Positions 1,431-64,000 of a stretch of DNA of 64,000 bases are shown here, piece after piece (positions within the stretch are counted from its first letter, which is position 1; the number at the start of each line of letters is the position of its first letter). The notes below the pieces were generated by a model. The model was not told the origin of the DNA. It did not search any database and saw nothing but the letters and a program-made list of their open reading frames with translations. Origin of the DNA: Flaccisagitta enflata. Taxonomy: Eukaryota. Made by a program: the position numbers and the translations under genes. Location: contig OZ231126.1 in the NCBI GenBank assembly GCA_965153355.1, positions 10,912,001-10,976,000 of the forward strand, read 5' to 3'.

Positions 1431-1977
1431 TTTTTGGGCAGCGGCCCCAAAGGGCCGATGTCCTGTAGAACACAGGGGGGAATTTCAAGATGTCCGTCCT
1501 TCCGTCCGTCCGTCCGTTCCCCCCCCCCCGTTGACCATCAAGGCTTCAGATTAGCCCTCCCAGACGTCAGATTAGCCCTCCCAGACCTCAATTTAGCCCT
1601 CCAGGCCTCAAATCAGCCCTCATGGCTTCAAATCAGCCCCCCCCATGCCTCAAAACTGCCCTCCAGACCTCAAATCTGCCCTCCAGACCTTCAATCAGCT
1701 CTCCAAGCATGAAACCAGCCCTCCAAACCTCAAATCAGCACTCTGTGCCTTAATCATGCCCTCCGGCCCTCAAATATGCCTTCAGTGGCCTATATCAACC
1801 ATCTAGAGCCCCTTCAGGATAGACGGAAGGACGGATGTCTCGAAATTCCCCCCTGTGTTCTACAGGACATCGGCCCTTTGGAGCCACTGCCCTGCTCTCA
1901 CTCCACTTCTTCACTGGATCACTCCCAGCAGGGCATCGGGTACCGCTGACCATGTGCGATCCTTGGATGACTAGTTA
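1431..1977 (+). mobile_element. HINE-like repeat family B with internal ~21-bp minisatellite
   Basis: TTTTTGGGCAGCGGCCCCAAAGGGCCGATGTCCT with an internal inverted copy, (GTCC)n, CCCTCCAGACCTCAAATC-like units and a GGTACCGCTGACCA tail. Related copies at 11578-12105, 50215-50722 (-) and 56800-57488 (-). Confidence 0.65.
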
Positions 1978-2581
1978 TGTATGTATCTGTGTTGGGTGGG
2001 ACGTTGGTTATGGATGGGGGTTGACTGCCCCTGCCCACCCATCTGCAACGATATTGTGACCCCGTGTCACTTGTTACTGATGGATGAATATTTGAAAAAA
2101 CGCGTGGCTCAGCTTAGTCAAGGAACCTGATGTTTGTGGGGATCCTAAGTGAAGTTGAGCTAGCATGATGGCTAGGAAATTTGATCACGCTGTAAAGTGG
2201 CATGTATAAAAAATCTACTCAGCAGTTTGAATTGTATAGAGAACAGACAGTCTATCTACCCAATGATATCACAAGTGACTAACATTAGGTTCCTGAGGGG
2301 GGGGGGGGCGGCTTTCCTTTAAAGTTGGCAGCGTTTAGGGGAAATTTTTTCTCGATAGAAATTAGGGGCGGAATTAAGAGGCCTGAGAACTATAAGTGTA
2401 AAAGTTATAGCCATTGTATCAAACATATCTCAACAAATAAACACTATTGTGACGAATCCACACTATTATGGAAGCTTAGTATGAAGTTATGTTGTCCAAC
2501 CGTCATAAGTATTCTCCATTTCTCCCTATAATCACTGTTTTGTACCAGGTGTTCCTACTAATCAACACTCTCATGACACAG

Positions 2582-2764
2582 GTATTGTGCAAATTAACAC
2601 CGTTGCCGTCGTGGCTATCGATCGATACATTTGCATCACTCGGCCTATGTCGCCGATGAAGTTGAACCAAGCCAAAGCGAAGATGTGCGTAGGAGTTGTT
2701 TGGGGAATTGCCATTCTCATCGCTTTCTTCCCATTTTTAGGGTGGAACCAATACGTTCCAGAAG
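2582..2764 (+). CDS. Opsin exon (TM3-TM4-ECL2 start); the 5' exons were not found in the window and presumably lie upstream of it
   Basis: Acceptor acacag|gt and donor GAAG|gtaagc. Translates GIVQINTVAVVAIDRYICITRP...AFFPFLGWNQYVPEG, with the DRY motif and the opsin-type YxPEG (E181-equivalent). Confidence 0.92.
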
Positions 2765-2849
2765 GTAAGCAAGCTCAACCTCCCACACACAAATGCACGG
2801 CAAAGAATAAGACAGACAGACAGACAGACAGACAAGCACATTAGGTCGT

Positions 2850-3404
2850 TGGATGCATCATTTGAAGGACCAATAACGACACATGACATGGATTGGTTTA
2901 GTCAGGACTTGATTTATGGAACCATTGAATAAAACAATCTTTCATTCTAAATTTCTAATTATCCATTGAAGGACCAATGAAGCATTCTCTTCATCCATTT
3001 AAGGTCCAATCAGAAGACAGGACATGGGATACTGAATAAGTCGGAATTTTATTAGTTGAATTAATTGAAAAAACAATTACTCATTCCTTCGTTATATCCA
3101 TTGAAGGTCCAAAAACGACATATGGCATCAATTGGTTCAGTCAGAATTTCTTTCATGGAACTATTCAATGAAACAATAATTCATTCGATTTATCCGTTGA
3201 AGGTCCAATGACAACATGTGGTATTGATTGATAAAGTCAGGATTTCATTTAAAGAGCTATCCAATAAAACAAATGTCCATTCTCTTCATCCATTTAAGGT
3301 CCAATCACGACATGTGGTACAGATTGATTAAGTCGGGATTTCATTGACATTGATTGAATGAATTGATAAAACAATTACTCATTCGTTCGTTTTATCCATT
3401 TAAG
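2850..3404 (+). repeat. ~100-bp degenerate tandem repeat derived from the opsin 3' splice site plus exon start
   Basis: About six copies of TCCATT(T/G)AAGG(T/A)CCAAT..ACATGTGG..GATTG..AGTC.GGA.T precede the true acceptor at 3404. Confidence 0.85.
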
Positions 3405-15670: not shown

Positions 15671-16603
15671 ATGGAGATAATACAGCGTGATATTGTAAAA
15701 CTGAAAAACAATCTAGAGAAGTTAATTAGTGTCATTGACAGCGTTAACAGTCATGATTCTACTTTGAATGATTCGATCAATTTGCTTTCCAAAAAAATGC
15801 AAAAACACATCACAAGTGCTGATTCCTTCAAAGCACAAGTGGTAAAGCATCAGGTTTCCTCTAAAACCGACTCTGAAGCCATTCAGAAGAAATCCACCAA
15901 ATTGCAACAACAGCTCGATGCGATGAATTGCAAGTTTGAACAGGAGAAAAAAGAAATAAGGCATATCAAAGATGAAATAAATACTAAGATGAATGCTATC
16001 GGAGAAAGAGCCTCATCCACTGATGTCCAATTGCAACAGCTTCAAACCGAATTTCAAGCCATCAAAGCTAAAGTGGATGAAATTGAAAATTACGCCCAAA
16101 GTTCAACCAACTTAGCCACAACAGCAAATGGCACAACTGTGCAATTTGTTCCAGAGTGGGTCTTACGCGAAAGAAAGAAGAACAACATCATAATTTTTGG
16201 GCTACATGAAATGGATGACGACCTTGCAGTGATCAAATTGCTTGCTGCCGACTTGGAATTGGACCTGGATCCTTCTTGTGACATCGTCCATAATTTTCGT
16301 GTTGGAACATCAAACAATGGCAACGTGTGCCCCCTGGTGGTTAAATATCCATGCTTGGAAAAAAAGAATGCAATGCTCCTGAAGGCAAAGAAGCTGAAAG
16401 GGATGGAAAAATGGAACGGGGTTATTGTCACTCACGACATGACAAAATTAGAATGTCAAGTGGGGAAAGCATGGGAGATGAAGCTACGACAAGATGCAGA
16501 GCAATTGAACAATTCTCTTTCTGCGGATGAAAAAAGTGTCAAGTTTTTTAAAGTTATTGGCGGCCGTCGTGAGCCAAGAATAGCATGCTTTCCGATTAAA
16601 TGA
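15671..16603 (+). CDS. LINE ORF1-like protein (coiled coil + RRM/CTD-like region), 310 aa, no ORF2 visible
   Basis: Heptad-rich N-terminal half, then ERKKNNIIIFGLHE...FRVG...PLVVKY...LLKAKKLK...IVTHDMT, a pattern typical of L1/L2/CR1-type ORF1 proteins. Confidence 0.7.
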   Translation: MEIIQRDIVKLKNNLEKLISVIDSVNSHDSTLNDSINLLSKKMQKHITSADSFKAQVVKHQVSSKTDSEAIQKKSTKLQQQLDAMNCKFEQEKKEIRHIKDEINTKMNAIGERASSTDVQLQQLQTEFQAIKAKVDEIENYAQSSTNLATTANGTTVQFVPEWVLRERKKNNIIIFGLHEMDDDLAVIKLLAADLELDLDPSCDIVHNFRVGTSNNGNVCPLVVKYPCLEKKNAMLLKAKKLKGMEKWNGVIVTHDMTKLECQVGKAWEMKLRQDAEQLNNSLSADEKSVKFFKVIGGRREPRIACFPIK

Positions 16604-16771
16604 CTCACTAACTTAGCGACCATAAGAGCATGATGATCAAAACAGAGATTTTCTTTTTTTTTCTCTCTACAAACGGTTTCTTAATATCATAAAATCCTCA
16701 GTATTTGCTCAGAGAATAATCACTGATATTATTTGCACTTATGAAAGCATCATATTTTCTAGTTGGATGTA

Positions 16772-17521
16772 CACCGTCTTTAGATCGATTTGAAAAATGT
16801 TAAACTTTTATAATTCCTAAACAACTTGGCAAAAAGTCTTCAAATTTTCAGCAAACATTGCTGACATGTGACCGTTTTGTTGTGCAAAAGTTTAGATATA
16901 GATACAGAATAATTGGGGTACAGCAAAACACTGAAAGAATGAGCATTTTTAAGCCATGGTAAATTTTTCTTCGGCTCTTTTTGAAGAAGCTGTCTTTTTC
17001 TTCTTGTAACTTTTAAACAGATCAAACTAAAACGTTAAAATTGGTATAAAATCATTGGTAATTAGTTGCAGAAAATATATTTTTGGAAAATTAAAAATTA
17101 GATTGGATACTTAACGGAATTTTTACAAAGTTTGGGTAATTTTTGAGAATTGTTAATGGCAAACATGGAAAATCAATCATTTTTTTTCAAAACTAATAAA
17201 AATCATAACATTTTCAAGCAAAATGGAAGTGTATGTATGTTCATCATCAGTCTGTAAGTGTGTTTGGGGTTCTAGTTCAGTTGGTTCAGCAGCGTAAGAC
17301 AGCTTCTTCTAAAAAAAGGTGAGAAAAGGTTTATTTTGCTTCAAAAATGACTGTTTTATCAGGGTTTTGCTGTACCTCAATCATTCAGTATCTGTATCTA
17401 AGGTTTTGCATAACAAAACGGTCACATGTTAGCAATGTTCACTCAAAATTTGAAGACTTTTTGCCTAGTAGTTAAGGAGCTATAAAGGTTTAACATTTTT
17501 CAAATCGATCTAAAGACGGTG
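16772..17521. mobile_element. Tc1/mariner-type MITE
   Basis: TA-flanked; long imperfect TIRs beginning CACCGTCTTTAGATCGATTTG. Related to 39466-40229. Confidence 0.82.
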
Positions 17522-18186
17522 TATTTATAGTCTTCATTTTTATATTTTGGAAAGTCGTTAAATTTTGGTGAAAATGCAACTTTTTTTTCACTGATTTATA
17601 CTTTAGATTTTTAAAAACTAGTGACTGGTCAATTTTGAATATTTCTAACATGGAATTTTCAATTTTTAGAAGTTGCATGGTAACAATGCTCGCTTTTGGT
17701 TCTTAAGAACTACTGACTGGTTAGTTCTTTGCCACGTGCTTTTGGTTTTGAAGAACTACTGACTGGTCATTTTTCTTTGCCACATAATTGTAATTGTTCT
17801 GTCGGAACAGCTACCATCTCGATGAGCAACTCGTAAAAAGGTTGCTTCCTTTGGTAGCTTTACTTTTATATTTATATTATTTGTTTGGTAAGATTACTTA
17901 ACACGATTTCAGCCCAAATACTGAGAGGCGCAAACAGCCCCAAACTTATCCCTAGTCTACATTAGGGGGGGTCATACAGGGTTGTTTTTGGAAATTCCTT
18001 ATGAGACTCTGGAATCTGGGGGTTTATTGAATGTAGAAAAGGATAGAAAAAAAATTGGGTATCCATGTCTTAAGGAAAAATAATCCATTTTTGATCAAAA
18101 ATGAGGTATCAGATAGGCGAAAATCGCGAAAATCGCAAAAATCGCGAAAAGCGCCAAGATATAGGCCATTGGTAATAGCCACCAGG

Positions 18187-18788
18187 CACATTGTAACTTT
18201 GTAGTATAATTGTGGCCAGGGGGGAATTTTCTTCTTCACTTCCATCTAAGTTTTTTGGAAGAGAGGAATTTTGGTGGAGAGGAATTTTGGAGGAGAGGAA
18301 TTTTTTATTTACTGGGGAATTTTGGAGGAGAGGAATTTTGGAGGAGAGGAATTTTAGAGAGGAGGAATTTTGAAGAGAGGAACTTTGGAGAGGAAGAGGA
18401 ATTTTAGAGGAGAGGAATTTTGGAGGAGAGGATTTTTCATTTACTGAAAAGTGGCATATTTACCGAGATTAAAAAGTAAGAACTTGGTAACTTACCATTG
18501 GCATAGCAACTTTTACCGATAATTAGGTAAAATAAAAAATAAGGTAATTTACCCAAATGAAAGTAAAAAAGTAAAAGAGTAAGAAAGTAAGAAAGCAAGG
18601 AAGCTAATTATGGACGAGGTAAAAAGTAAGAAAGTAAGAGAGTAAAAAAGCAAAAGAGTAAAAAAGTAAGAAACTGAATTACTGAAAGTAAGCAAGTAAA
18701 TTGTAGGTTATTTACTGGAATAACAGTAAAGTAACGAAAGAGTAAGAGTAAGAGAAAAATCCGCCTTGGCCATGGAAGTTACATTGTG
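18187..18788. mobile_element. Transib-like non-autonomous element nested in the left hAT arm
   Basis: Termini CACATTGTAACTT / AAGTTACATTGTG and 5-bp TSD CCAGG (18182-18186, 18789-18793). Absent from the right arm at the equivalent position. Interior has GGAGAGGAATTTT and AGTAAAA repeats. Confidence 0.8.
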
Positions 18789-19290
18789 CCAGGACACTAA
18801 AAAACATTTGTTTTTGGCTTAGATGATGTATTTTTGCCTTACTCTTACCTCTCATGACAATAATTAGGCTTCCAATGCAAGCTTTTTTTCATTTTTAGGG
18901 CTTTATACATGCTGCCATAAAGGCAAAAATTAGCGAAAAATCAAAAAAAATTGAGAAAATCTTTAAAAAAAGGAAAAAATTGTACTGTCTAGTGTGTGTT
19001 AAAAAAATGTGCCTGTTTGTTTTAAAGATGCTTGTTTGATTTAGTATTTTCATTATTCTCATATTCTTTTCCCTTTTATGTTAAAAAAAAACCATTTTTT
19101 AACCATGAAATATTTGCAATAAAGGCAGAAATAAGCGAAATCAACAAAAATTGCAAAACTCAGTGCTCAAGCTTCTTCCTCCAGGACTTGCAACCTGGCA
19201 TGGGTGTTTTACTGAAGGTTTTTTTTTTGGTTTTTAAGATTTTTTTTTGTTTTTTTTTTTTTTGGTTAATCAATGTTTGCACCTACACAA

Positions 19291-19642
19291 TACGAATGTC
19301 AGAGTGCCGGAATCGGCTGAAACTGGCTTTTCCCCCACCATCATCTGTTTTCTTTGCTTAAATGCTATCAAATGAGCCGTTGTGCGATTTTCAAATCGAT
19401 CGGGAACCATCGTTAGGGTGACCTTGAAGTTTTCATAGAAACCAATGAGGAAAGTAAAATTTGCATGAGAGAAATGTTGATTCCAATGTTAATTCAATAC
19501 AAACTTCAACCTCACCCTAACGATGGTTCCCGATCGAATTGAAGGTCGCGCGATGGCTCGTTTGACAGAATTTTTGCATAAGAAAAAGATGATGGCGGGA
19601 GGAAAGCCAGTTTCGCCCGTTTTTGGCACCCTGACACTCGTA
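19291..19642. mobile_element. Palindromic MITE with 8-bp TSD nested in the left hAT arm
   Basis: TIRs TACGAATGTCAGAGTGCC / GGCACCCTGACACTCGTA and TSD CTACACAA (19283-19290, 19643-19650). Absent from the right arm; imperfect inverted symmetry through most of its length. Confidence 0.85.
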
Positions 19643-20042
19643 CTACACAAGTATGGATAGGGCTTGACGGTCAAACTAAGAACTAGTTTGACGGAACGGC
19701 TGATTTTTAACCACTAAGGTAGGGAACATGAAAAGATATGCACATTTCAGATAAAAACAATATGAAAAATAAAAAACAGTATAGAAAACAAAGTAAATGA
19801 GATAACTGAGCGGGAGCTGATTCAGCTCACCAAGACCTCAGTTATAACATAAACATAAAAAATAAAGAGGTCACAATGAAAAAAATGCATTGGACTCTTA
19901 AGATGAAAACATTTGAATGTCTTATGAAAGAAGCACAGTTGAAATTCATAACGCTATAATGTAGTAATCTTAAAATCTTGTTTCTTGAAAAAATTACATT
20001 GAAAAATCATTACATTCAAATGTTTTATCTTTTGAATTTGAT

Positions 20043-20912
20043 TCAATGCTCTTGTGAAGAGATCTCCAGGAAACCGGTTGGAATTTGCCCAGACCAGCAT
20101 GAATCTTCCCACATCCCCATGCCATAAATTGTGTCACAGAAACGGTTACCAAAGAACTGATATCCAAGCTCAAGGAGTTGGATTGCAGAGTCTGTCTCCA
20201 CCTTGACTGCATGACTTGCATTTGGCCGATAGTTGCTCTCTTTGGCACAAAAGTTAACCCCTCCCTTCCTCTGCTGCTGAGAGATAAACCCTGCCAACAA
20301 AATGTCTTTGACTGCACTAGTGTTGTGGACCAAAGGGCAAAGCTGTTGCAAAGATTCCTTCCCCAGCAAGTAATGCCCAGGGGGAGCAAGAACTCCGAAG
20401 CTGTGTCCCCCAAGTGCTGCCACTCTGATGGTAACCGAGGCATCTGGGTGGAAAAACTCAAGTGCTACAAATCGCACTTTCCTTTCTGTATCATACATGG
20501 GACTGATGGCAAGCAGGATTTTCTCTCTGGAAAAACAAAGATCTCTCTTGAGGGCGGATATTGGCACCGACCCATCTTGACATGAGTATTGTCCATGAGG
20601 CATATTGTGGCGAAGAAAATAACTCATTTTCTTGGAAATCCAAGTGCCCTCAGCAAATGGCAATTCAAGGAAAGGATTGATGCCAACATCTTTCACTTTC
20701 TTGAATGTCAGAGATTTTTCCAGCCAAATGCTCAAAGCTTTGACCGAACCTGCTTCAGCCCCAGATTCTCGTAGCTCAGAAAGTTCTTCTTGAAGTTTTT
20801 CTTGGTTTTTTATCAAAAGTTGCCTAAAATTTCTCATTTCAACTCTCTCCTTCTTCTGCCTTGATCTCTCCCTTGCAGTTTTCCAGGGCACGCGAACAGG
20901 AGCTTCTGCCAT
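20043..20912 (-). CDS. Divergent Tpt1/KptA-family (RNA 2'-phosphotransferase, ART-fold) protein, 289 aa, transposon cargo
   Basis: First ATG at 20912 (the ORF track start at 20957 is a TTG). Colinear motifs: SKKMSYFLRH, DGSVPI, DTERKVRF, IRVAALGGHS, LVHNT, GFISQQQR..VNF, YRPNA, GYQFF..N, GQIP..FL. These match the Tpt1/KptA pattern SKxLSxxLRH, DGxV, DxKxRF, IRAxQGHS, LxHGT, GLxxMxRxHVH, GxxF..N, IPP. Confidence 0.78.
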   Translation of the reverse strand: MAEAPVRVPWKTARERSRQKKERVEMRNFRQLLIKNQEKLQEELSELRESGAEAGSVKALSIWLEKSLTFKKVKDVGINPFLELPFAEGTWISKKMSYFLRHNMPHGQYSCQDGSVPISALKRDLCFSREKILLAISPMYDTERKVRFVALEFFHPDASVTIRVAALGGHSFGVLAPPGHYLLGKESLQQLCPLVHNTSAVKDILLAGFISQQQRKGGVNFCAKESNYRPNASHAVKVETDSAIQLLELGYQFFGNRFCDTIYGMGMWEDSCWSGQIPTGFLEISSQEH

Positions 20913-21211
20913 AATCAAATCAAGAAAATGATCCTGAAGATATTTGAATGAGTACAAGTTAACCTAGTTTTTCTTCAGTTAGTTCGTAAAATGCTTAAAA
21001 ACTTAAGAGCTTAATTGTTTGAATATCAGTATATAGTAAAACCACTCCTAAACTTGAAGTCAATCCAGTTAACAGATTAAAACATTTATCTAGTGAGGAT
21101 AATCTGATTATCTTGAATTTCTTAGCTTTAATCTGCAGATTTTCCTCTGAAAGATTGATGTGCCATAGCACATTCTTCCTGAAAATTCTTTACCCAAAAT
21201 AATCAAAGGAG
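20913..21211. promoter_or_regulatory. Putative bidirectional promoter between cargo and transposase
   Basis: 299-bp AT-rich spacer between two divergent ATGs; function inferred from geometry only. Confidence 0.45.
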
Positions 21212-23659
21212 ATGGCAAAATCTTTGAGATCCAATGAACACAAGGTCATTGGGTCTGCCTCCTCTTTTCCTGAGAATGTCCTCCCTACAAAGTCAGATGT
21301 TGTGAAGAGGACGCAATTGAGCAAAGATCACCTTGAGTTCTCGACAGGTAAGCAGAAAATTCCAGTTTCTCAGATCCTAGAACCAGTTCTTGAAGAACTA
21401 GGTCAGCTTTGGCAGAAAGCCTCAATTCCAACAATTAGCAAATCCGGAATTGAGAAGGCAGTAAGCAAGTTGTGGGAACATTCAAAGCAAGGCCTCAAAA
21501 ATGAACAGTCCAAGACCCGAGCTCAAGATGAAAATCAAAGACTTCTTGATATCTCTGCCTGCAAGTGCAAACAGATCAGTTGCGTTCAAGCAAAATGCCA
21601 AACAGATGCCTGTGATGACCTCCACTTGGACTGCAAATGCGACTCCTCAAAGAGGGTTCCACAGCAAGAGATAAAGTTCCTTTTTGACCAAAGAGGCCCA
21701 CGGAAAATGCTGATGTCTGGAATAGACCGAAAAGTTACCCAAAGTCTTAAGAGGTCTTTTGATAAGGTGGAGGCTTTCGAGGCCCAACGAGAGAGAGAAA
21801 AAAGGCGGCGGAAAGACGAAGAGGAGAACAATGCTGCTGCTACACGTGAATTCTTTGCAGAGGAGGCAGATGAGGAAGAGAAAGATGATGATCACGCTCA
21901 AGAAAGGAAGGATCCAACTTTTGCTCCAGATGGTCCCAACTCAGCAGATCCAGGGCCAAAAACAAGAAACACTCATGCTCTTCCAAGAACTGGTGCGGAG
22001 TGTGACAGATGGGATGTCTCCAGCAAAGCTGCGGCTGACTTGGTAAACTCCTTTGCCATTGATATGGGTTTGCTCACTGATTCAAACAAGTCCACCATGA
22101 CAACAGATAAGGCAAAGATTGATCGTTGGAGAAAAGCAGGTCGGAAAAAGGCAAACGCAGAGCGCAAGAAAGCAATTGGAGCAAAGGATATCTCTGGTAT
22201 TTACTTTGATGGGAAGAAAGATTTCACTTTGACCACAGTAGAGAGGAATGGCAAGCCCAACCCAAGGAAGGTTATTGAAGACCACTATGTCATGTTGGGT
22301 GAGCCAGAGAATGTCTACCTGGGACATGAAGTCCCCTATTCAGGACACGGCATCAGCATTGGCCTGAGACTCTTTCGCTCATTGAAGGAGAAGAATTTGG
22401 CAGCTAAGATGATTGTGGCAGGTGCAGATGGATGCAATGTGAATGTTGGCAACAATGAAGGCGCCTTGGTCTACTTAGAATTGCTTCTAGGAAAGCCTCT
22501 TCATTGGTTCATCGGTATGCTTCATGGATGCGAATTGCCATTCAGAGCACTAGTCCGCAAACTAGATGGTGGAACGTCAGGCCCTCTCTCACTCAAAGGT
22601 CCAATTGGGAGTACTTTAGTTGAGGATCTCACAGAATTGCCGGTGATAAACTTTCGTAGCATCCCAAATCCAGATTTTCCCACTGTTGCAGAGGAGGACT
22701 CTTATGAGTTAAGCAAGGCTCAACGGTACACATACAGAATGTGCCGGGCTATCATAAGTGGCGAAATGCCCCCTGGTCTTGCTGATGAAGAACCTGGGAA
22801 ATACCATGGTGCAAGATGGAACACACTTGCCAACAGGCTCATGCGCAAATATGTTGCAACTCCTCGTCCTTCTCGAAAATTTCAAAAGTTGATCCATTCG
22901 ATCATTCACCATTATGCTCCCTCTTGGTTCCAAATCAAGACCCATCCAAGATGCGTTGATGGTCCAAAGAACTTTTACAAGATGGTTGAATACCAGCGAA
23001 AGCTTGAGCCAGAACTGCAAGAGGAAGTTCAGAAAGTCATGCAGAGAAATGCATACTTTGCTCATCCCGAGGCAATCCTTCTCTCTATGCTTGCAGACAG
23101 TGACCGTGAGGTGCGAGCTCAAGCAGTTAACACCATCTTGACCATTCGGATGAAATTGGACCAAGCAAGGGCTGACCTCTGTCAAGAGGATGATGGGCGA
23201 GGAGTGGATGAGGAAGATGAAGATGAGGAAGAACCTCCTGAAGGGGAAGAAGATGATGCCTTCCAATTGGACCCTTCAGAAGATCATGCCATTTCAAATT
23301 CCCAAGTTAGGAAATTTGTTCTTCCCAAAGTGAATTTCAGTGCAACTAGCTACACTGAACTGATTGACTGGGAATCAGCAAAGCTGACAGAGCCACCTTT
23401 CACTTTGGATTTCAAGGAAGCTGACCTATTTGCCATCAAAGAGGCCCCCCTTGAAGTACCAAATTACCCATGCCACACCCAGGCAGTGGAAAGGGCCATC
23501 AAGCTTGTCTCTGAGGCTTCTGCTGCAGTGGTTGGACAAGAAGCAAGAGAAGGTTTCATCTCTCAACAGATCAAAGAAAGGCAGGAGTTGAGCAAGTTTG
23601 AATCAAAGAAGGACTACTTTCCAAAGGTGGAAGCTGCTTGCCAACCAAATGTCGAATGA
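21212..23659 (+). CDS. hAT (hATm-like) DDE transposase, 815 aa, intronless
   Basis: Uninterrupted ORF between the TIRs. N-terminal Cys/His cluster (CKC..C..C..C..H..CKC). Candidate catalytic D (GIYFDG), D (GADG) and E (HTQAVER); RW motif (GARWNT). The CxxH position reads GMLH. Confidence 0.9.
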   Translation: MAKSLRSNEHKVIGSASSFPENVLPTKSDVVKRTQLSKDHLEFSTGKQKIPVSQILEPVLEELGQLWQKASIPTISKSGIEKAVSKLWEHSKQGLKNEQSKTRAQDENQRLLDISACKCKQISCVQAKCQTDACDDLHLDCKCDSSKRVPQQEIKFLFDQRGPRKMLMSGIDRKVTQSLKRSFDKVEAFEAQREREKRRRKDEEENNAAATREFFAEEADEEEKDDDHAQERKDPTFAPDGPNSADPGPKTRNTHALPRTGAECDRWDVSSKAAADLVNSFAIDMGLLTDSNKSTMTTDKAKIDRWRKAGRKKANAERKKAIGAKDISGIYFDGKKDFTLTTVERNGKPNPRKVIEDHYVMLGEPENVYLGHEVPYSGHGISIGLRLFRSLKEKNLAAKMIVAGADGCNVNVGNNEGALVYLELLLGKPLHWFIGMLHGCELPFRALVRKLDGGTSGPLSLKGPIGSTLVEDLTELPVINFRSIPNPDFPTVAEEDSYELSKAQRYTYRMCRAIISGEMPPGLADEEPGKYHGARWNTLANRLMRKYVATPRPSRKFQKLIHSIIHHYAPSWFQIKTHPRCVDGPKNFYKMVEYQRKLEPELQEEVQKVMQRNAYFAHPEAILLSMLADSDREVRAQAVNTILTIRMKLDQARADLCQEDDGRGVDEEDEDEEEPPEGEEDDAFQLDPSEDHAISNSQVRKFVLPKVNFSATSYTELIDWESAKLTEPPFTLDFKEADLFAIKEAPLEVPNYPCHTQAVERAIKLVSEASAAVVGQEAREGFISQQIKERQELSKFESKKDYFPKVEAACQPNVE

Positions 23660-25577
23660 GAATATTGAAAATAGTAAATGAGGTCTTGGTGATTTTACAC
23701 AAATCCCGCTCATTTACTGTCATTGTTTTTTTTTTGCAAATTGTATTCTTTTTTTTTGAACTGAGGTCATGGTGATCTAGCACAGAGCCCGCTCAGTTTT
23801 TAATTTTTCAATTTGATTTTTGATGCTGATATTCAATTATATAATCTGTATTACTAATTATTGTTGCCTTAGTAGTTAAAAATCAGCCGCTGGATCAAAC
23901 ATTTTACAGTTTGAACTCATCACCTAATTGTGTATTTCATGGTACAATACTTTGATTCATTGAAAAAATTGTTTGTCATTTCTACTGCTTTTGATGAAAT
24001 TGCCTTTGTGGTTAAAAATCAGCCATTCCGTCAAACTAGTTCTTAGTTTGACCGTCAAGCCCTATCCATACTTGTGTAGGTGCAAACATTGATTAACCAA
24101 AAAAAAAAAAAAAAAAAAAAAAATCAAAAAAAATCTTAAAAACCAAAAAAAAAAAACCTTCAGTAAAACACCCATGCCAGGTTGCAAGTCCTGGAGGAAG
24201 AAGCTTGAGCACTGAGTTTTGCAATTTTTGTTGATTTCGCTTATTTCTGCCTTTATTGCAAATATTTCATGGTTAAAAAATGTTTTTTTTTAACATAAAA
24301 GGGAAAAGAATATGAGAATAATGAAAATACTAAATCAAACAAGCATCTTTAAAACAAACAGGCACATTTTTTAAACACACACTAGACAGTACAATTTTTT
24401 CCTTTTTTTAAAGATTTTCTCAATTTTTTTGATTTTTCGCTAATTTTTGCCTTTATGGCAGCATGTATAAAGCCCTAAAAATGAAAAAAAGCTTGCATTG
24501 GAAGCCTAATTATTGTCATGAGAGGTAAGAGTAAGGCAAAAATACATCATCTAAGCCAAAAACAAATGGTTTTTAGCGTCCTGGTGGCTATTACCAATGG
24601 CCTATATCTTGGCGATTTTCGCGATTTTCGCGATTTTCGCGATTTTCGCCTATCTGATACCTCATTTTTGATCGAAAATGGATTATTTTTCCTTAAGACA
24701 TGGATACCCAATTTTTTTTCTATCCTTTTCTACATTCAATAAACCCCCAGATTCCAGAGTCTCATAAGGAATTTCCAAAAACAACCCTGTATGACCCCCC
24801 CTAGTCTACATGAAATATTTTGTCAGAAAAACTATTTCATTCAAAAAATCACAACTCAGTCGTTTTCTGATGGAAATAGGAAAAATTAGTGACCAAAATG
24901 TAGAATTTTTTAAGGGGCATCTGATACTTTTTTGCGCGACTAAATCGGTTCAGCCGTTCAAAAGATATGGCCACTTAAAGATGGAAAAAGGAGAAAAAAA
25001 AGTCAAAATATGAAATTTTTCATTCTTTTCCGCATAGTTTCGTCCTTTTTTTCACTCTTTAAACCTCGTCTGGTTCTGAAGGCTGTGTTGAGTGCTCATC
25101 TGGCAGCTTGGTCAGGTTTATTTAAGCAAAAAATGATCTTCGAGTGGTAAAAAACAACCTAAACTAGCACTTATGAAAACAAGGCCGAATACACGGGTGG
25201 GCAGGGGCCATATTTGAGGTCACTTGATCATTTTGGCAGTAGCAGTGAGGCAAAAGACCGCAAAAACCCAAGAAAAGTAAAGTGTGACCAACGGATGGAC
25301 CAACCGACGGACTGACAGACTAACAAAGCGGCATGTAGTCGCGTAGCACGCGACTAAAAAAAGTTTCGGTTATGATTTTTTTTATTTCCTTTGATTATAT
25401 CACCTCATTGAAAGAAATAAATTCATGCACAGAAAAATTTTTGATTGCTTTACAGGTCCATCACAGGTCAAAAATTGGTAAAAAGTGGTTAGATAAAGAA
25501 AACTTTACATTTTTGTGTGCAAATTTTAGCTAGCTTGTATTTCACTCGGCTTTGGTCTGTCTGTCTGTTGGTCTCTG

Positions 25578-62647: not shown

Positions 62648-63040
62648 CGTTGAATAAACGAAGTAGTAACAGAACACTGCTATAAAAAGCGGGATGACGA
62701 AGTTGAGGAGAAAGATCATGATGATGTAAGATCGATCTCCAGAGTCCCGACTGAACCAATCGATACCACATGTTGTCATTGGGCCTTAAATGGATAAAAC
62801 GAACGAATGAGTAGTTGTTTTATCAATTAATGAAATCCCGACTTAATAAGTCAGTACCACATGTCTTGATTGGATCTCAAATGGATGAAGAGAATACTTC
62901 ATTGGTCCTTCAATGGATAATTAGAAATTTAGAATGAAAGATTGTTGTATTCGATGGTTCCATGAATCAAGTCCTTACTAAACCAATCAATGTCATGTGT
63001 CGTCATTGGTCCTTCAAATGAAGCATCCAACAATCTAATG

Positions 63041-63083
<43 letters not shown>

Positions 63084-63324
63084 TTCTTTGCCGTGCATTT
63101 GTGTGTGGGAGGTTGAGCTTGCTTACCCTCTGGAACGTATTGGTTCCACCCTAAAAATGGGAAGAAAGCGATGAGAATGGCAATTCCCCAAACAACTCCT
63201 ACGCACATCTTCCCTACGCACATCTTCGCTTTGGCTTGGTTCAACTTCATCGGCGACATTGGCCGAGTGATGCAAATGTATCGATCGATCGCCACGACGG
63301 CAACGGTGTTAATTTGCACAATAC
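62648..63324 (-). pseudogene. Inverted partial duplicate of the opsin (exons 63127-63324 and 62648-62784)
   Basis: Near-identical to 2582-2764 and 3405-3541, including splice sites and intron. Carries an in-frame 15-bp tandem duplication (KMCVG-KMCVG). I could not find the downstream exons (ICL3, TM6-7) anywhere to its left. Confidence 0.75.
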
Positions 63325-64000
63325 CTGTGTCATAAGAGTGTTGATTAGTAGGAACACCTGGTACAAAATAGTAGAAGGTAGGTAGACCGAAGTCGAACCG
63401 AAGCCGAAGATTACAGTGACTTTGTTTGCGAAACCGAATCCGAAGTTTGCCAAAGTCCAAAACTAAAGTTTGAAGTTACTTCAATTTTGTTGATTGAATC
63501 AAATTTTTCTTAGATTATCAAAACAAATATCAAATTTTGATTTTTTTTAAAGCATGTTTTTTTAATTTGCAGACACACAACTCTATAAGAGACTTTGTCC
63601 GAATGTCCGTCGGTGATTAGTTGGTCCCGATGCATTGGTGGTCATGGACATGATCAGAAAAGTGAAATGACGTTTAGAAGCATTTAGTTGCGGACAGTTG
63701 CATTTCCGCCCCTGCCCACCCATCCGCAACTGATGGCCATGTATCCGACCTTGTTTATTTTCATCTTGCACAATTTTTTACTTTTATTTCTCTTTTTTAA
63801 AAAGAGTGAATTCAAATCGTTTATTGATTTATCATTTCTTTTTATTTTTGAAAGGGAAAAATACTAGAATACTAATAAGTGAAATTTATTTTATTTAATC
63901 ATATCAATATAAATATGTGCTTGTTTCTCAAACTTTTCTCAAACTTTAAGTTAAAGTTTAAGTTAATCTCTGAAGCAAAACAAGTGGTTTTGATATTTCT

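Follow-up and report, generated by a model that had tools for sequence, protein, structure and literature searches.

The window is a stretch of 64,000 nucleotides of Flaccisagitta enflata DNA. Between positions 17963 and 24803 it carries an element of 6,841 bp, within which two open reading frames point away from each other (Table 1). The frame on the minus strand starts with an ATG at 20912, runs for 289 codons without interruption and encodes a protein resembling the eukaryotic enzyme Tpt1/TRPT1. The frame on the plus strand, ORF815, encodes a protein resembling the hAT transposases. The spacer between the two frames presumably acts as a two-way promoter.

Table 1. Features of the element and its flanks, in window coordinates
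Feature	Position	Strand	Basis
Target-site duplication, left copy GTCTACAT, 8 bp	17955..17962		Identical to 24804-24811
Left terminal inverted repeat, start TAGGGGGGGTCATACAGGG, split by two nested insertions	17963..19719	+	blastn of element against window; inverted-repeat search agrees
Nested insertion 1 in left arm, 602 bp, termini CACATTGTAAC / GTTACATTGTG, 5-bp duplication CCAGG	18187..18788		Missing in right arm, where the two blast blocks share 5 nt
Nested insertion 2 in left arm, 352 bp, palindromic, MITE-like, 8-bp duplication CTACACAA	19291..19642		In right arm the two blast blocks share 8 nt
Tpt1/TRPT1-like ORF, 289 aa + stop	20043..20912	-	ORF scan, Pfam, profile, AlphaFold, structural alignment
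Codons 85-289 of Tpt1-like ORF, two-lobe Tpt1 fold (predicted)	20046..20660	-	VIA structural alignment, profile alignments, column counts
Codons 1-84 of Tpt1-like ORF, N-terminal extension: basic stretch 11-23, predicted helices 21-49 and 51-67	20661..20912	-	AlphaFold model, family alignments, TRPT1 structural alignment starting at 85
Spacer between divergent ORFs, 299 bp	20913..21211		Sequence
hAT-like transposase ORF (ORF815), 815 aa	21212..23659	+	Family alignment, AlphaFold, Foldseek, VIA
Right terminal inverted repeat, 801 bp, uninterrupted	24003..24803	-	blastn, window sequence
Target-site duplication, right copy GTCTACAT, 8 bp	24804..24811		Window sequence

The inverted ends of the element are about 800 bp long and 96-99% alike. 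In blastn the left end pairs with the right end in three blocks, 17963-18186 with 24803-24580 (98.7%), 18789-19290 with 24584-24072 (96.3%) and 19643-19719 with 24079-24003 (97.4%), which are separated by the two nested insertions. The second of these insertions has a very high depth in run X13. A Mutator-like reading of the element, having a 10-bp duplication and GGGGGGG termini, was rejected, because it would make the two ends asymmetric.

The Tpt1-like gene had originally been predicted to be the cargo of a transposon. This was confirmed by the transposase-like frame alongside it, the long inverted repeats and the 8-bp duplication immediately outside them, and the gene is very probably Tpt1-derived transposon cargo. 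The window holds only one full copy of the element, as might be expected if a host gene merely happened to lie between repeats, outside any mobile element. Such a coincidence is barely credible, however, because the duplication that flanks the matching ends is perfect and because other copies of the element exist. The contigs of these copies part from the window exactly at 17962/17963 and continue into unrelated flanks (loose ends at 17962 were found in X6, X14 and X1). Contigs from three studies join both frames, and other contigs represent internal-deletion derivatives, in which 20565 is joined to 23141, 20973 to 23329 and 21190 to 24708. The linkage of the Tpt1-like gene to ORF815 has been seen only within this family of near-identical elements. 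An attempt to extend it by means of contigs of equal size was rejected: the longest contig is 4,087 nt for one Tpt1-like relative and also for one ORF815 relative, but a parallel coincidence at 3,456 nt is too small for two full genes. Contigs from RNA libraries span the Tpt1-like gene. They are not counted as expression, because DNA may end up in libraries of this kind and one of the contigs covers both divergent genes.

The AlphaFold model of ORF815 has a pLDDT of 79.4, and all nine of its Foldseek matches at E<=0.001 are chains of Hermes. The VIA alignment with Hermes has a Z score of 13.7 over 342 aligned residues, placing residues 292-794 of the model onto residues 136-609 of Hermes; the next family, ISCth4, reaches 10.9. 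Across 20 sequences of the ORF815 family D333, D406 and E760 do not vary, the glutamate being part of a VER motif at 759-761. A C-x-x-H motif occupies residues 435-438, although this copy has G435 in place of a nearly invariant cysteine. The predicted structure has a Hermes-type architecture, in which an RNase H-like D-D-E core carries a large helical insertion, with a modest margin over other transposases. No Pfam family, including the hAT dimerisation domain and the BED finger, matches ORF815 at E<=0.1, and no PDB sequence is matched by either the single sequence or the profile. A piggyBac identity was considered on account of a Pfam domain found on one weak relative of ORF815; the 8-bp duplication speaks against it, as does the Hermes-like fold. 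When the Tpt1-like protein was modelled together with residues 255-815 of ORF815, the score was 0.00, which is uninformative both ways.

The AlphaFold model of the Tpt1-like protein has a mean pLDDT of 86.9. A Foldseek search with this model places Tpt1/KptA structures at ranks 1-19, 17 of them at E<=0.001. Residues 85-289 align with mouse TRPT1 (7yw2) with a VIA Z score of 18.4, an rmsd of 2.2 Å over 184 of 206 residues and 28% identity, and with human TRPT1 (7yw3) with a Z score of 18.0. Both alignments extend over the two lobes of the fold, the winged-helix RNA lobe and the ADP-ribosyltransferase NAD+ lobe, which are present in this part of the predicted model. Against Pfam PF01885, for which the cut-off is 26 bits, the sequence on its own reaches 24.2 bits (E 3.9e-5), and a phmmer search with it against the PDB finds no solved Tpt1, the lone weak match being unrelated. 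The Pfam family is matched by 23 of 31 members of the protein's own family at E<=0.01 (best 1e-14). A profile of these 31 members aligns with yeast Tpt1 (7yw4) at E 2.3e-11 and also with human TRPT1. Judged from the model and these alignments, the protein is a member of a diverged and unnamed family having the Tpt1/TRPT1 fold.

The sequence had been taken to be long diverged and not a recent copy of the host TRPT1, in agreement with the searches. With phmmer, 102 relatives, of which 17 have E<=1e-30, were detected among 1.84 billion representatives; the family profile detected 32. All of them are unnamed, and canonical Tpt1 is absent from both sets. By these searches the gene is not a recent copy of host TRPT1. 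The ESM Atlas has no usable match for the protein. One metagenome contig of 1,483 nt holds an intact relative of 309 residues and is too short to include a neighbouring gene. The suggestion of a bacterial or viral origin was not supported, as mammalian TRPT1 leads the structural matches (Z 18.0-18.4, 26-28% identity). For archaeal and bacterial enzymes the Z scores are 13.7-15.2 and the identities 17-23%, while the six viral matches in BFVD at E<=0.001 have identities of 13-21%. The NCBIfam equivalog models for prokaryotic KptA do not match the protein, pattern and tblastn searches of 185,579 prokaryote species genomes found no close relatives, and no relative was found among the IMG/VR viral contigs.

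This copy of the element is slightly decayed. In its Tpt1-like frame six differences from the run contigs are listed, of which four change the protein (at E15, R30, K122 and I136) and two are silent. Furthermore, relatives of ORF815 are annotated in a moth genome and no annotated genome yielded a Tpt1-like relative, showing that the Tpt1-like gene is not universal in the transposase family. Both observations would be consistent with a passenger, that is, a host or foreign gene captured by the transposon, having no role for the element and drifting to decay. Yet in any transposon individual insertions decay neutrally, the 102 representatives make up a family of full-length, intact frames, and no canonical Tpt1 is near enough to have been a recent donor. 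The invariance of functional residues described below and the retention of a specific N-terminal extension across deep branches also speak against a passenger, which is very unlikely.

The extension, originally put at about 90 basic and coiled-coil residues, was verified: the structural alignment with TRPT1 begins only after its 84 residues, and the AlphaFold model has two helices within it (Table 1). Its basic stretch has the sequence KTARERSRQKKER, in which R16 and R23 are nearly invariant in an alignment of 11 family sequences. The basic motif is common to the whole family, and alignments and the tree show the extension to be present on deep branches.

The motifs quoted for the Tpt1 fold are all in place, namely FLRH (R101-H102), RVAALGGHS (163-171), KVRF (R147), HNT (196-198), QQQR (R215) and RKGGVNF (215-221). 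In the profile alignments R101, H102, R147 and R215 correspond to R40, H41, R86 and R150 of human TRPT1, which form the Tpt1 tetrad and are R23, H24, R71 and R138 in the yeast enzyme (PMC10415124). Likewise, K145 corresponds to human K84, and H196 and T198 to H130 and T132. The aligned human residues are reported as catalytic or NAD-binding in passages of PMC10415124 and PMC6333775. The LLRH, KxRF, GHS and HxT motifs and the last arginine of the family profile align with the corresponding motifs of both 7yw4 and 7yw3. The predicted Arg-His-Arg-Arg tetrad is thus found on the tetrad columns of Tpt1, a placement that the 31-member profile shows to be beyond chance. The clustering of the tetrad was judged from the alignment to solved structures and not from residue distances in the model.

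Conservation was counted by column over the 31 family members, whose identity goes down to 27%. R101, K145, H196, T198 and R215 are invariant; H170, I204, Y228 and N256 are each retained in 30 members and R147 in 29. Residue 102 is histidine in 19 members, tryptophan in eight, aspartate in two and lysine in one. Because of these replacements, His102 is not needed by the family as a whole. It is kept throughout a clade of 15 rows that includes the window protein and has a support of 100/100.

The NAD lobe departs from the canonical enzyme at two positions. The second histidine of the H-H-h triad (human H154, yeast H142) is N220 here, the column having asparagine in 27 of the 31 members and histidine in one. 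In human TRPT1, H154 of this triad hydrogen-bonds the distal ribose (PMC10415124). The SGxR loop reads SNYR, its glycine being replaced by Asn227; changes of Ser or Gly to Trp in this donor loop of TRPT1 nearly abolish ADP-ribosylation (PMC10415124). The earlier description of the NAD-lobe motifs as altered therefore stands for these two substitutions. The alteration is nevertheless milder than claimed, because H196 and T198 of HxT, G-H-S and R215 are retained.

The two substitutions, the tryptophan that takes the place of the tetrad histidine in eight of the 31 members and the conserved basic N-terminal motif would all suit a protein in which catalysis has been lost. It would then be an accessory factor without enzymatic function, whose Tpt1 scaffold and basic N-terminus contact nucleic acid or the transposase. 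The Myb-like protein that PIF/Harbinger elements encode as their second product is a comparable factor. However, the five invariant residues, together with I204 and N256, are hard to account for without binding of NAD+ and phosphate, and an asparagine could still make the ribose hydrogen bond. A non-enzymatic protein seems somewhat unlikely. The Tpt1-like protein is fairly likely to be catalytically active.

The protein is probably an active NAD+-dependent ADP-ribosyltransferase that modifies the phosphates of nucleic acids and has been kept as an accessory gene of the transposon. In such an enzyme the N-terminal, or RNA, lobe with R101, H102, K145 and R147 would grip the phosphate of an RNA or DNA molecule. 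The C-terminal, or NAD, lobe would hold NAD+ by means of H196/T198, I204/Q213, R215, N220, the S226-R229 loop and N256/F258. Attack of the phosphate on C1'' of NAD+ would release nicotinamide and leave a phospho-ADP-ribosylated nucleic acid. If the substrate is a terminal 5'-phosphate, the ADP-ribose would remain as a cap, and 5'-phospho-ADP-ribose caps are made on RNA and DNA by Tpt1 enzymes (PMC6182162, PMC10415124). The 84 N-terminal residues, which are basic and helical, may guide the protein onto nucleic acid or into the nucleus. The transposon may have retained the gene because modified phosphorylated ends aid transposition or dampen the response of the host.

A more specific version, which is distinctly unlikely, is that animal DNA transposons of one family carry a nucleic-acid phosphate ADP-ribosyltransferase of their own in order to cap 5'-phosphates. 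Caps could be placed on the ends left by excision, on both the element and the broken donor site, or on small RNAs of the host for which a free 5'-phosphate is required. Were such 5'-end capping to occur, the element would steer repair or escape silencing, and this would be the first transposon-encoded nucleic-acid ADP-ribosylation in eukaryotes. According to PMC6333775 and PMC13247085, the role of Tpt1/TRPT1 in animals is an open question, the enzyme not being needed there for tRNA splicing. Here a Tpt1-type enzyme has survived deep divergence on a selfish element, its phosphate- and NAD-binding residues still in place, which gives the search for a natural substrate a specific context. The accessory genes described for eukaryotic cut-and-paste transposons make up a short list, to which the element adds an enzyme class. 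Searches of open-access papers found no transposon described as carrying a Tpt1-like gene.

The closest known systems are the eukaryotic enzymes Tpt1 and TRPT1 (7yw2, 7yw3 and 7yw4). The window protein shares with them the two-lobe fold (rmsd 2.2 Å), the Arg-His-Arg-Arg tetrad with a lysine before the second arginine, G-H-S, H-x-T, the Ile/Gln(Met) adenine pair and the loop arginine. Unlike them, it has a basic and helical N-terminal extension of about 84 residues, an asparagine for the second histidine of H-H-V and SNYR for SGxR, and it is too distant from them to be related by phmmer. Its gene is borne by a transposon, whereas Tpt1/TRPT1 is a single-copy housekeeping gene. The archaeal and bacterial KptA/Tpt1 enzymes (for example 9ld6, 8tg4, 8tfi and 6e3a) have the same fold and tetrad, at lower scores and identities than mammalian TRPT1. 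Viral Tpt1/KptA proteins, known from a sawfly nucleopolyhedrovirus, giant viruses and RNA-virus polyproteins, also place a Tpt1 domain on a selfish element, but their identity to the window protein is only 13-21%. These viral cases are surveyed in PMC9503650, in the accessible text of which the word "transposon" does not occur.

The carrier element resembles hAT elements such as Hermes in its 8-bp target duplication and in having ends that start with TAG. ORF815 has in common with the Hermes transposase an RNase H-like core that bears the D-D-E triad and is divided by a large helical insertion, and a C-x-x-H motif after the second aspartate. It differs from hAT in that ORF815 has no Pfam hAT or BED match and in that the element has a second gene and inverted ends of about 800 bp, those of hAT elements being short. 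The fungal transposons carrying a TET/JBP dioxygenase likewise combine a transposase with an enzyme that modifies nucleic acids in a cut-and-paste element (PMC12730594), although they differ from the window element in the enzyme, the host kingdom and the transposase lineages.

The Tpt1-like gene is carried by a transposon. Its status as cargo, put forward in the original prediction, is borne out by matching inverted ends, a perfect flanking duplication and a transposase-like partner, ORF815; that it is instead a host gene lying between chance repeats is hardly credible. The ends pair in three segments when the region is compared with the window by blastn. The right arm, 801 bp, is uninterrupted, while the left arm was interrupted twice at a later time, each insertion having produced a target duplication of its own. 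The interior of the first consists chiefly of short tandem repeats; its heptamer-like end together with the 5-bp duplication is the hallmark of Transib-type elements. The second must be a very abundant repeat, since its summed depth in the public sequencing run X13 is about 229,000, as against about 1,700-3,000 over the greater part of the element's coding interior. Tandem units situated about 150 bp inward from each inverted end are possible transposase binding sites.

Features of the window and residues of the Tpt1-like ORF, with equivalents from the A1 profile alignment and counts among the 31 A1 members
Feature	Position	Equivalent or detail	A1 members
Element	17963-24803	6,841 bp; TAGGGGGGGTCATACAGGG at both ends; duplication GTCTACAT outside	
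Inverted ends	17963-18186 / 24803-24580	98.7%	
Inverted ends	18789-19290 / 24584-24072	96.3%	
Inverted ends	19643-19719 / 24079-24003	97.4%	
First insertion	18187-18788	602 bp; termini CACATTGTAAC / GTTACATTGTG; 5-bp duplication CCAGG	
Second insertion	19291-19642	352 bp; palindromic, MITE-like; 8-bp duplication CTACACAA	
Tandem CGCGAAAAT-like units	18118-18155; 24612-24650		
Tpt1-like ORF	20043-20912 (-)	289 codons without break; ATG at 20912	
ORF815	21212-23659 (+)	815 aa	
Adjoining ORF	15671-16603 (+)	310 aa	
Inverted repeat pair	16770-16982 / 17311-17523	213 nt; 83% complementary; 328 nt apart	
Receptor-like frame	63035-63475 (-)	PF00001, E 5.8e-10	
Basic stretch KTARERSRQKKER	residues 11-23		
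Window-copy residues	15, 30, 122, 136	E, R, K, I; K, G, E, T in contigs and close relatives	
FLRH	R101-H102	human R40-H41; yeast R23-H24	R101 31; position 102: His 19, Trp 8, Asp 2, Lys 1, gap 1
Lys	K145	human K84	31
KVRF	R147	human R86; yeast R71	29
RVAALGGHS	residues 163-171		
G-H-S	residues 169-171	human G-H-S	H170 30
HNT	residues 196-198		
H/T	H196 / T198	human H130 / T132	31 each
Adenine pair	I204, Q213	human Ile/Gln; 213 is Met in yeast, Gln in human	I204 30; 213: Met 15, Gln 14
QQQR	R215	human R150; yeast R138	31
RKGGVNF	residues 215-221		
Triad	N220	human H154	27; His once
Loop	S226-N227-Y228-R229	human S167-G168-M169-R170	Y228 30; R229 25
Asn	N256		30

Immediately left of the element is an inverted repeat pair, probably a further MITE-like repeat. 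The ORF adjoining the element outside has a long, coiled-coil-like N-terminal half and sub-threshold Pfam matches only, and may be part of another mobile element. The distant frame matching rhodopsin-family 7TM receptors probably represents one exon from a GPCR gene of the host, consistent with an animal genome.

ORF815 lies on the opposite strand, 299 bp from the Tpt1-like ORF. It has no sequence match in Pfam or PDB. Among its 42 relatives are uncharacterised moth proteins (Amyelois transitella), and its Atlas clusters are mostly arthropod. Residues D333, D406 and E760 are invariant in 20 aligned members, with a C-x-x-H after the second Asp. When the AlphaFold model (pLDDT 79.4) was searched with Foldseek, all nine matches at E<=0.001 were chains of Hermes, a hAT transposase; in VIA, Hermes gave Z 13.7 with 342 aligned residues (model 292-794), the next family Z 10.9.

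The stretch 19900-23700 is present in 20 of the 24 public runs listed, from 10 studies, comprising marine metagenomes, metatranscriptomes and one coded organism (A). Contigs of four runs were compared with 17500-25200. Both genes are found on a 3,098-nt DNA contig (20595-23692) and on a 4,050-nt RNA-library contig (19699-23692), the latter not being proof of transcription. The linkage shown here concerns one near-identical element family only. In three runs the contigs change to unrelated sequence directly before 17963, which confirms the left terminus and the existence of copies at other sites. Internal-deletion derivatives with joints 20565->23141, 20973->23329 and 21190->24708 also occur in run contigs, the second retaining the entire Tpt1-like ORF.

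Among the differences listed between the window copy and the run contigs, six fall in the Tpt1-like ORF (four amino-acid, two silent) and ten, in nine codons, in ORF815, seven of these changing the residue. Codon 435 of ORF815 (22514) encodes Gly in place of the nearly invariant family Cys of C-x-x-H, which the contigs of all four runs retain; the window's transposase may be impaired. By its private changes in both genes, this copy is an ageing insertion, although the consensus of its family looks functional. None of the changes falls on a catalytic residue mapped to TRPT1/Tpt1. It is improbable that the gene is a functionless passenger.

By itself the window protein matches PTS_2-RNA (PF01885) with 24.2 bits (E 3.9e-5), below the Pfam cut-off of 26, and phmmer against solved structures found no Tpt1 match. 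Its relatives, all from ENA or Logan assemblies, number 24 at E<=0.001 in a word-indexed search, 32 in a profile search and 102 by exhaustive phmmer of 1.84 billion cluster representatives (64 at E<=1e-10, 17 at E<=1e-30); canonical Tpt1 is absent from all three sets. PF01885 is matched at E<=0.01 by 23 of the 31 full-length members aligned in A1 (best 1e-14), and the A1 profile matches yeast Tpt1 (7yw4, E 2.3e-11), mouse TRPT1 (7yw2, E 0.0024) and human TRPT1 (7yw3, E 0.02). Judged by these profiles, the protein belongs to a Tpt1-related family.

The AlphaFold2 model made from A1 has mean pLDDT 86.9 and pTM 0.70. Foldseek ranks 1-19 in the PDB are Tpt1/KptA entries only, led by human TRPT1 (E 2.6e-8). 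In VIA-align the model gives Z 18.4 with mouse TRPT1 (rmsd 2.2 Å, 184 aligned, 28% identity) and 18.0 with human TRPT1, against 13.7-15.2 (17-23% identity) with archaeal and bacterial enzymes. These alignments span residues about 85-289 and therefore cover both lobes. Viral homologues in BFVD (one sawfly nucleopolyhedrovirus, three giant viruses, two RNA-virus polyproteins) are 13-21% identical, and the NCBIfam prokaryotic KptA models are unmatched. Eukaryotic TRPT1s are thus the nearest known structures, and nothing in this unrooted comparison favours the bacterial or viral donor once proposed.

Residues 1-84 lie beyond the Tpt1 fold. Helices are predicted with moderate confidence at 21-49 and 51-67, and a basic motif near R16 and R23 is common to the family, with a linker of variable length; the extension might plausibly serve in nuclear targeting or in binding nucleic acid. 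In one 365-aa member (P0004) the N-terminal helical segment is internally duplicated, so that the extension varies in length and the Tpt1 domain does not.

All strings quoted in the original prediction occur at the residue numbers given there, and R101-H102, R147 and R215 fall on the tetrad positions of human and yeast enzymes. The NAD-lobe motifs, described as altered, depart in two places only, as the residue mapping and the counts in 31 members indicate: the second triad His (N220) and the loop Gly (N227). The remainder of that claim was overstated. NAD+ binding requires H-T, I-Q and the last Arg; H130-H154-V198 is the H-H-V version of the H-H-h triad; and the SGR loop is a mobile donor loop where nearly all activity is lost when Ser or Gly is changed to Trp (PMC10415124). 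The bacterial mutational data described in PMC6333775 agree with these roles. Maximum-likelihood analysis of the 31 rows places the window protein in a clade of 15 (support 100/100), all with His102. By alignment to solved structures, the active-site residues would cluster in space.

The protein is probably an active Tpt1-type enzyme; a non-catalytic binding factor is a distinctly weaker candidate. The predicted enzyme would hold an RNA or DNA phosphate with R101, H102, K145 and R147, and this phosphate would attack NAD+ bound in the C-lobe; a terminal 5'-phosphate would retain the cap. Such capping by Tpt1 enzymes has been demonstrated (PMC6182162, PMC10415124). The human equivalent of R147 is described as essential for 2'-phosphate transfer and partly dispensable for capping (PMC10415124), so that its conservation hints at retention of the two-step chemistry. 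A cut-and-paste element might use the enzyme to modify phosphorylated ends from excision and repair, or alternatively nucleic acids of the host response.

The Hermes-like ORF815 model and the 8-bp duplication flanking the element make the carrier hAT-like; its very long ends and its lack of hAT sequence domains make it a candidate for formal membership rather than a certain member. Among the main texts of freely accessible papers, none was found that describes a transposon with a Tpt1-like gene, though this element may already have an entry in a repeat database. One survey of viral NAD+/ADP-ribose systems (PMC9503650) records KptA from phages, one baculovirus group, one giant virus and the polyproteins of RNA viruses; the word 'transposon' does not occur in it. 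The nearest analogy found is with the fungal DNA transposons bearing TET/JBP dioxygenases (PMC12730594).
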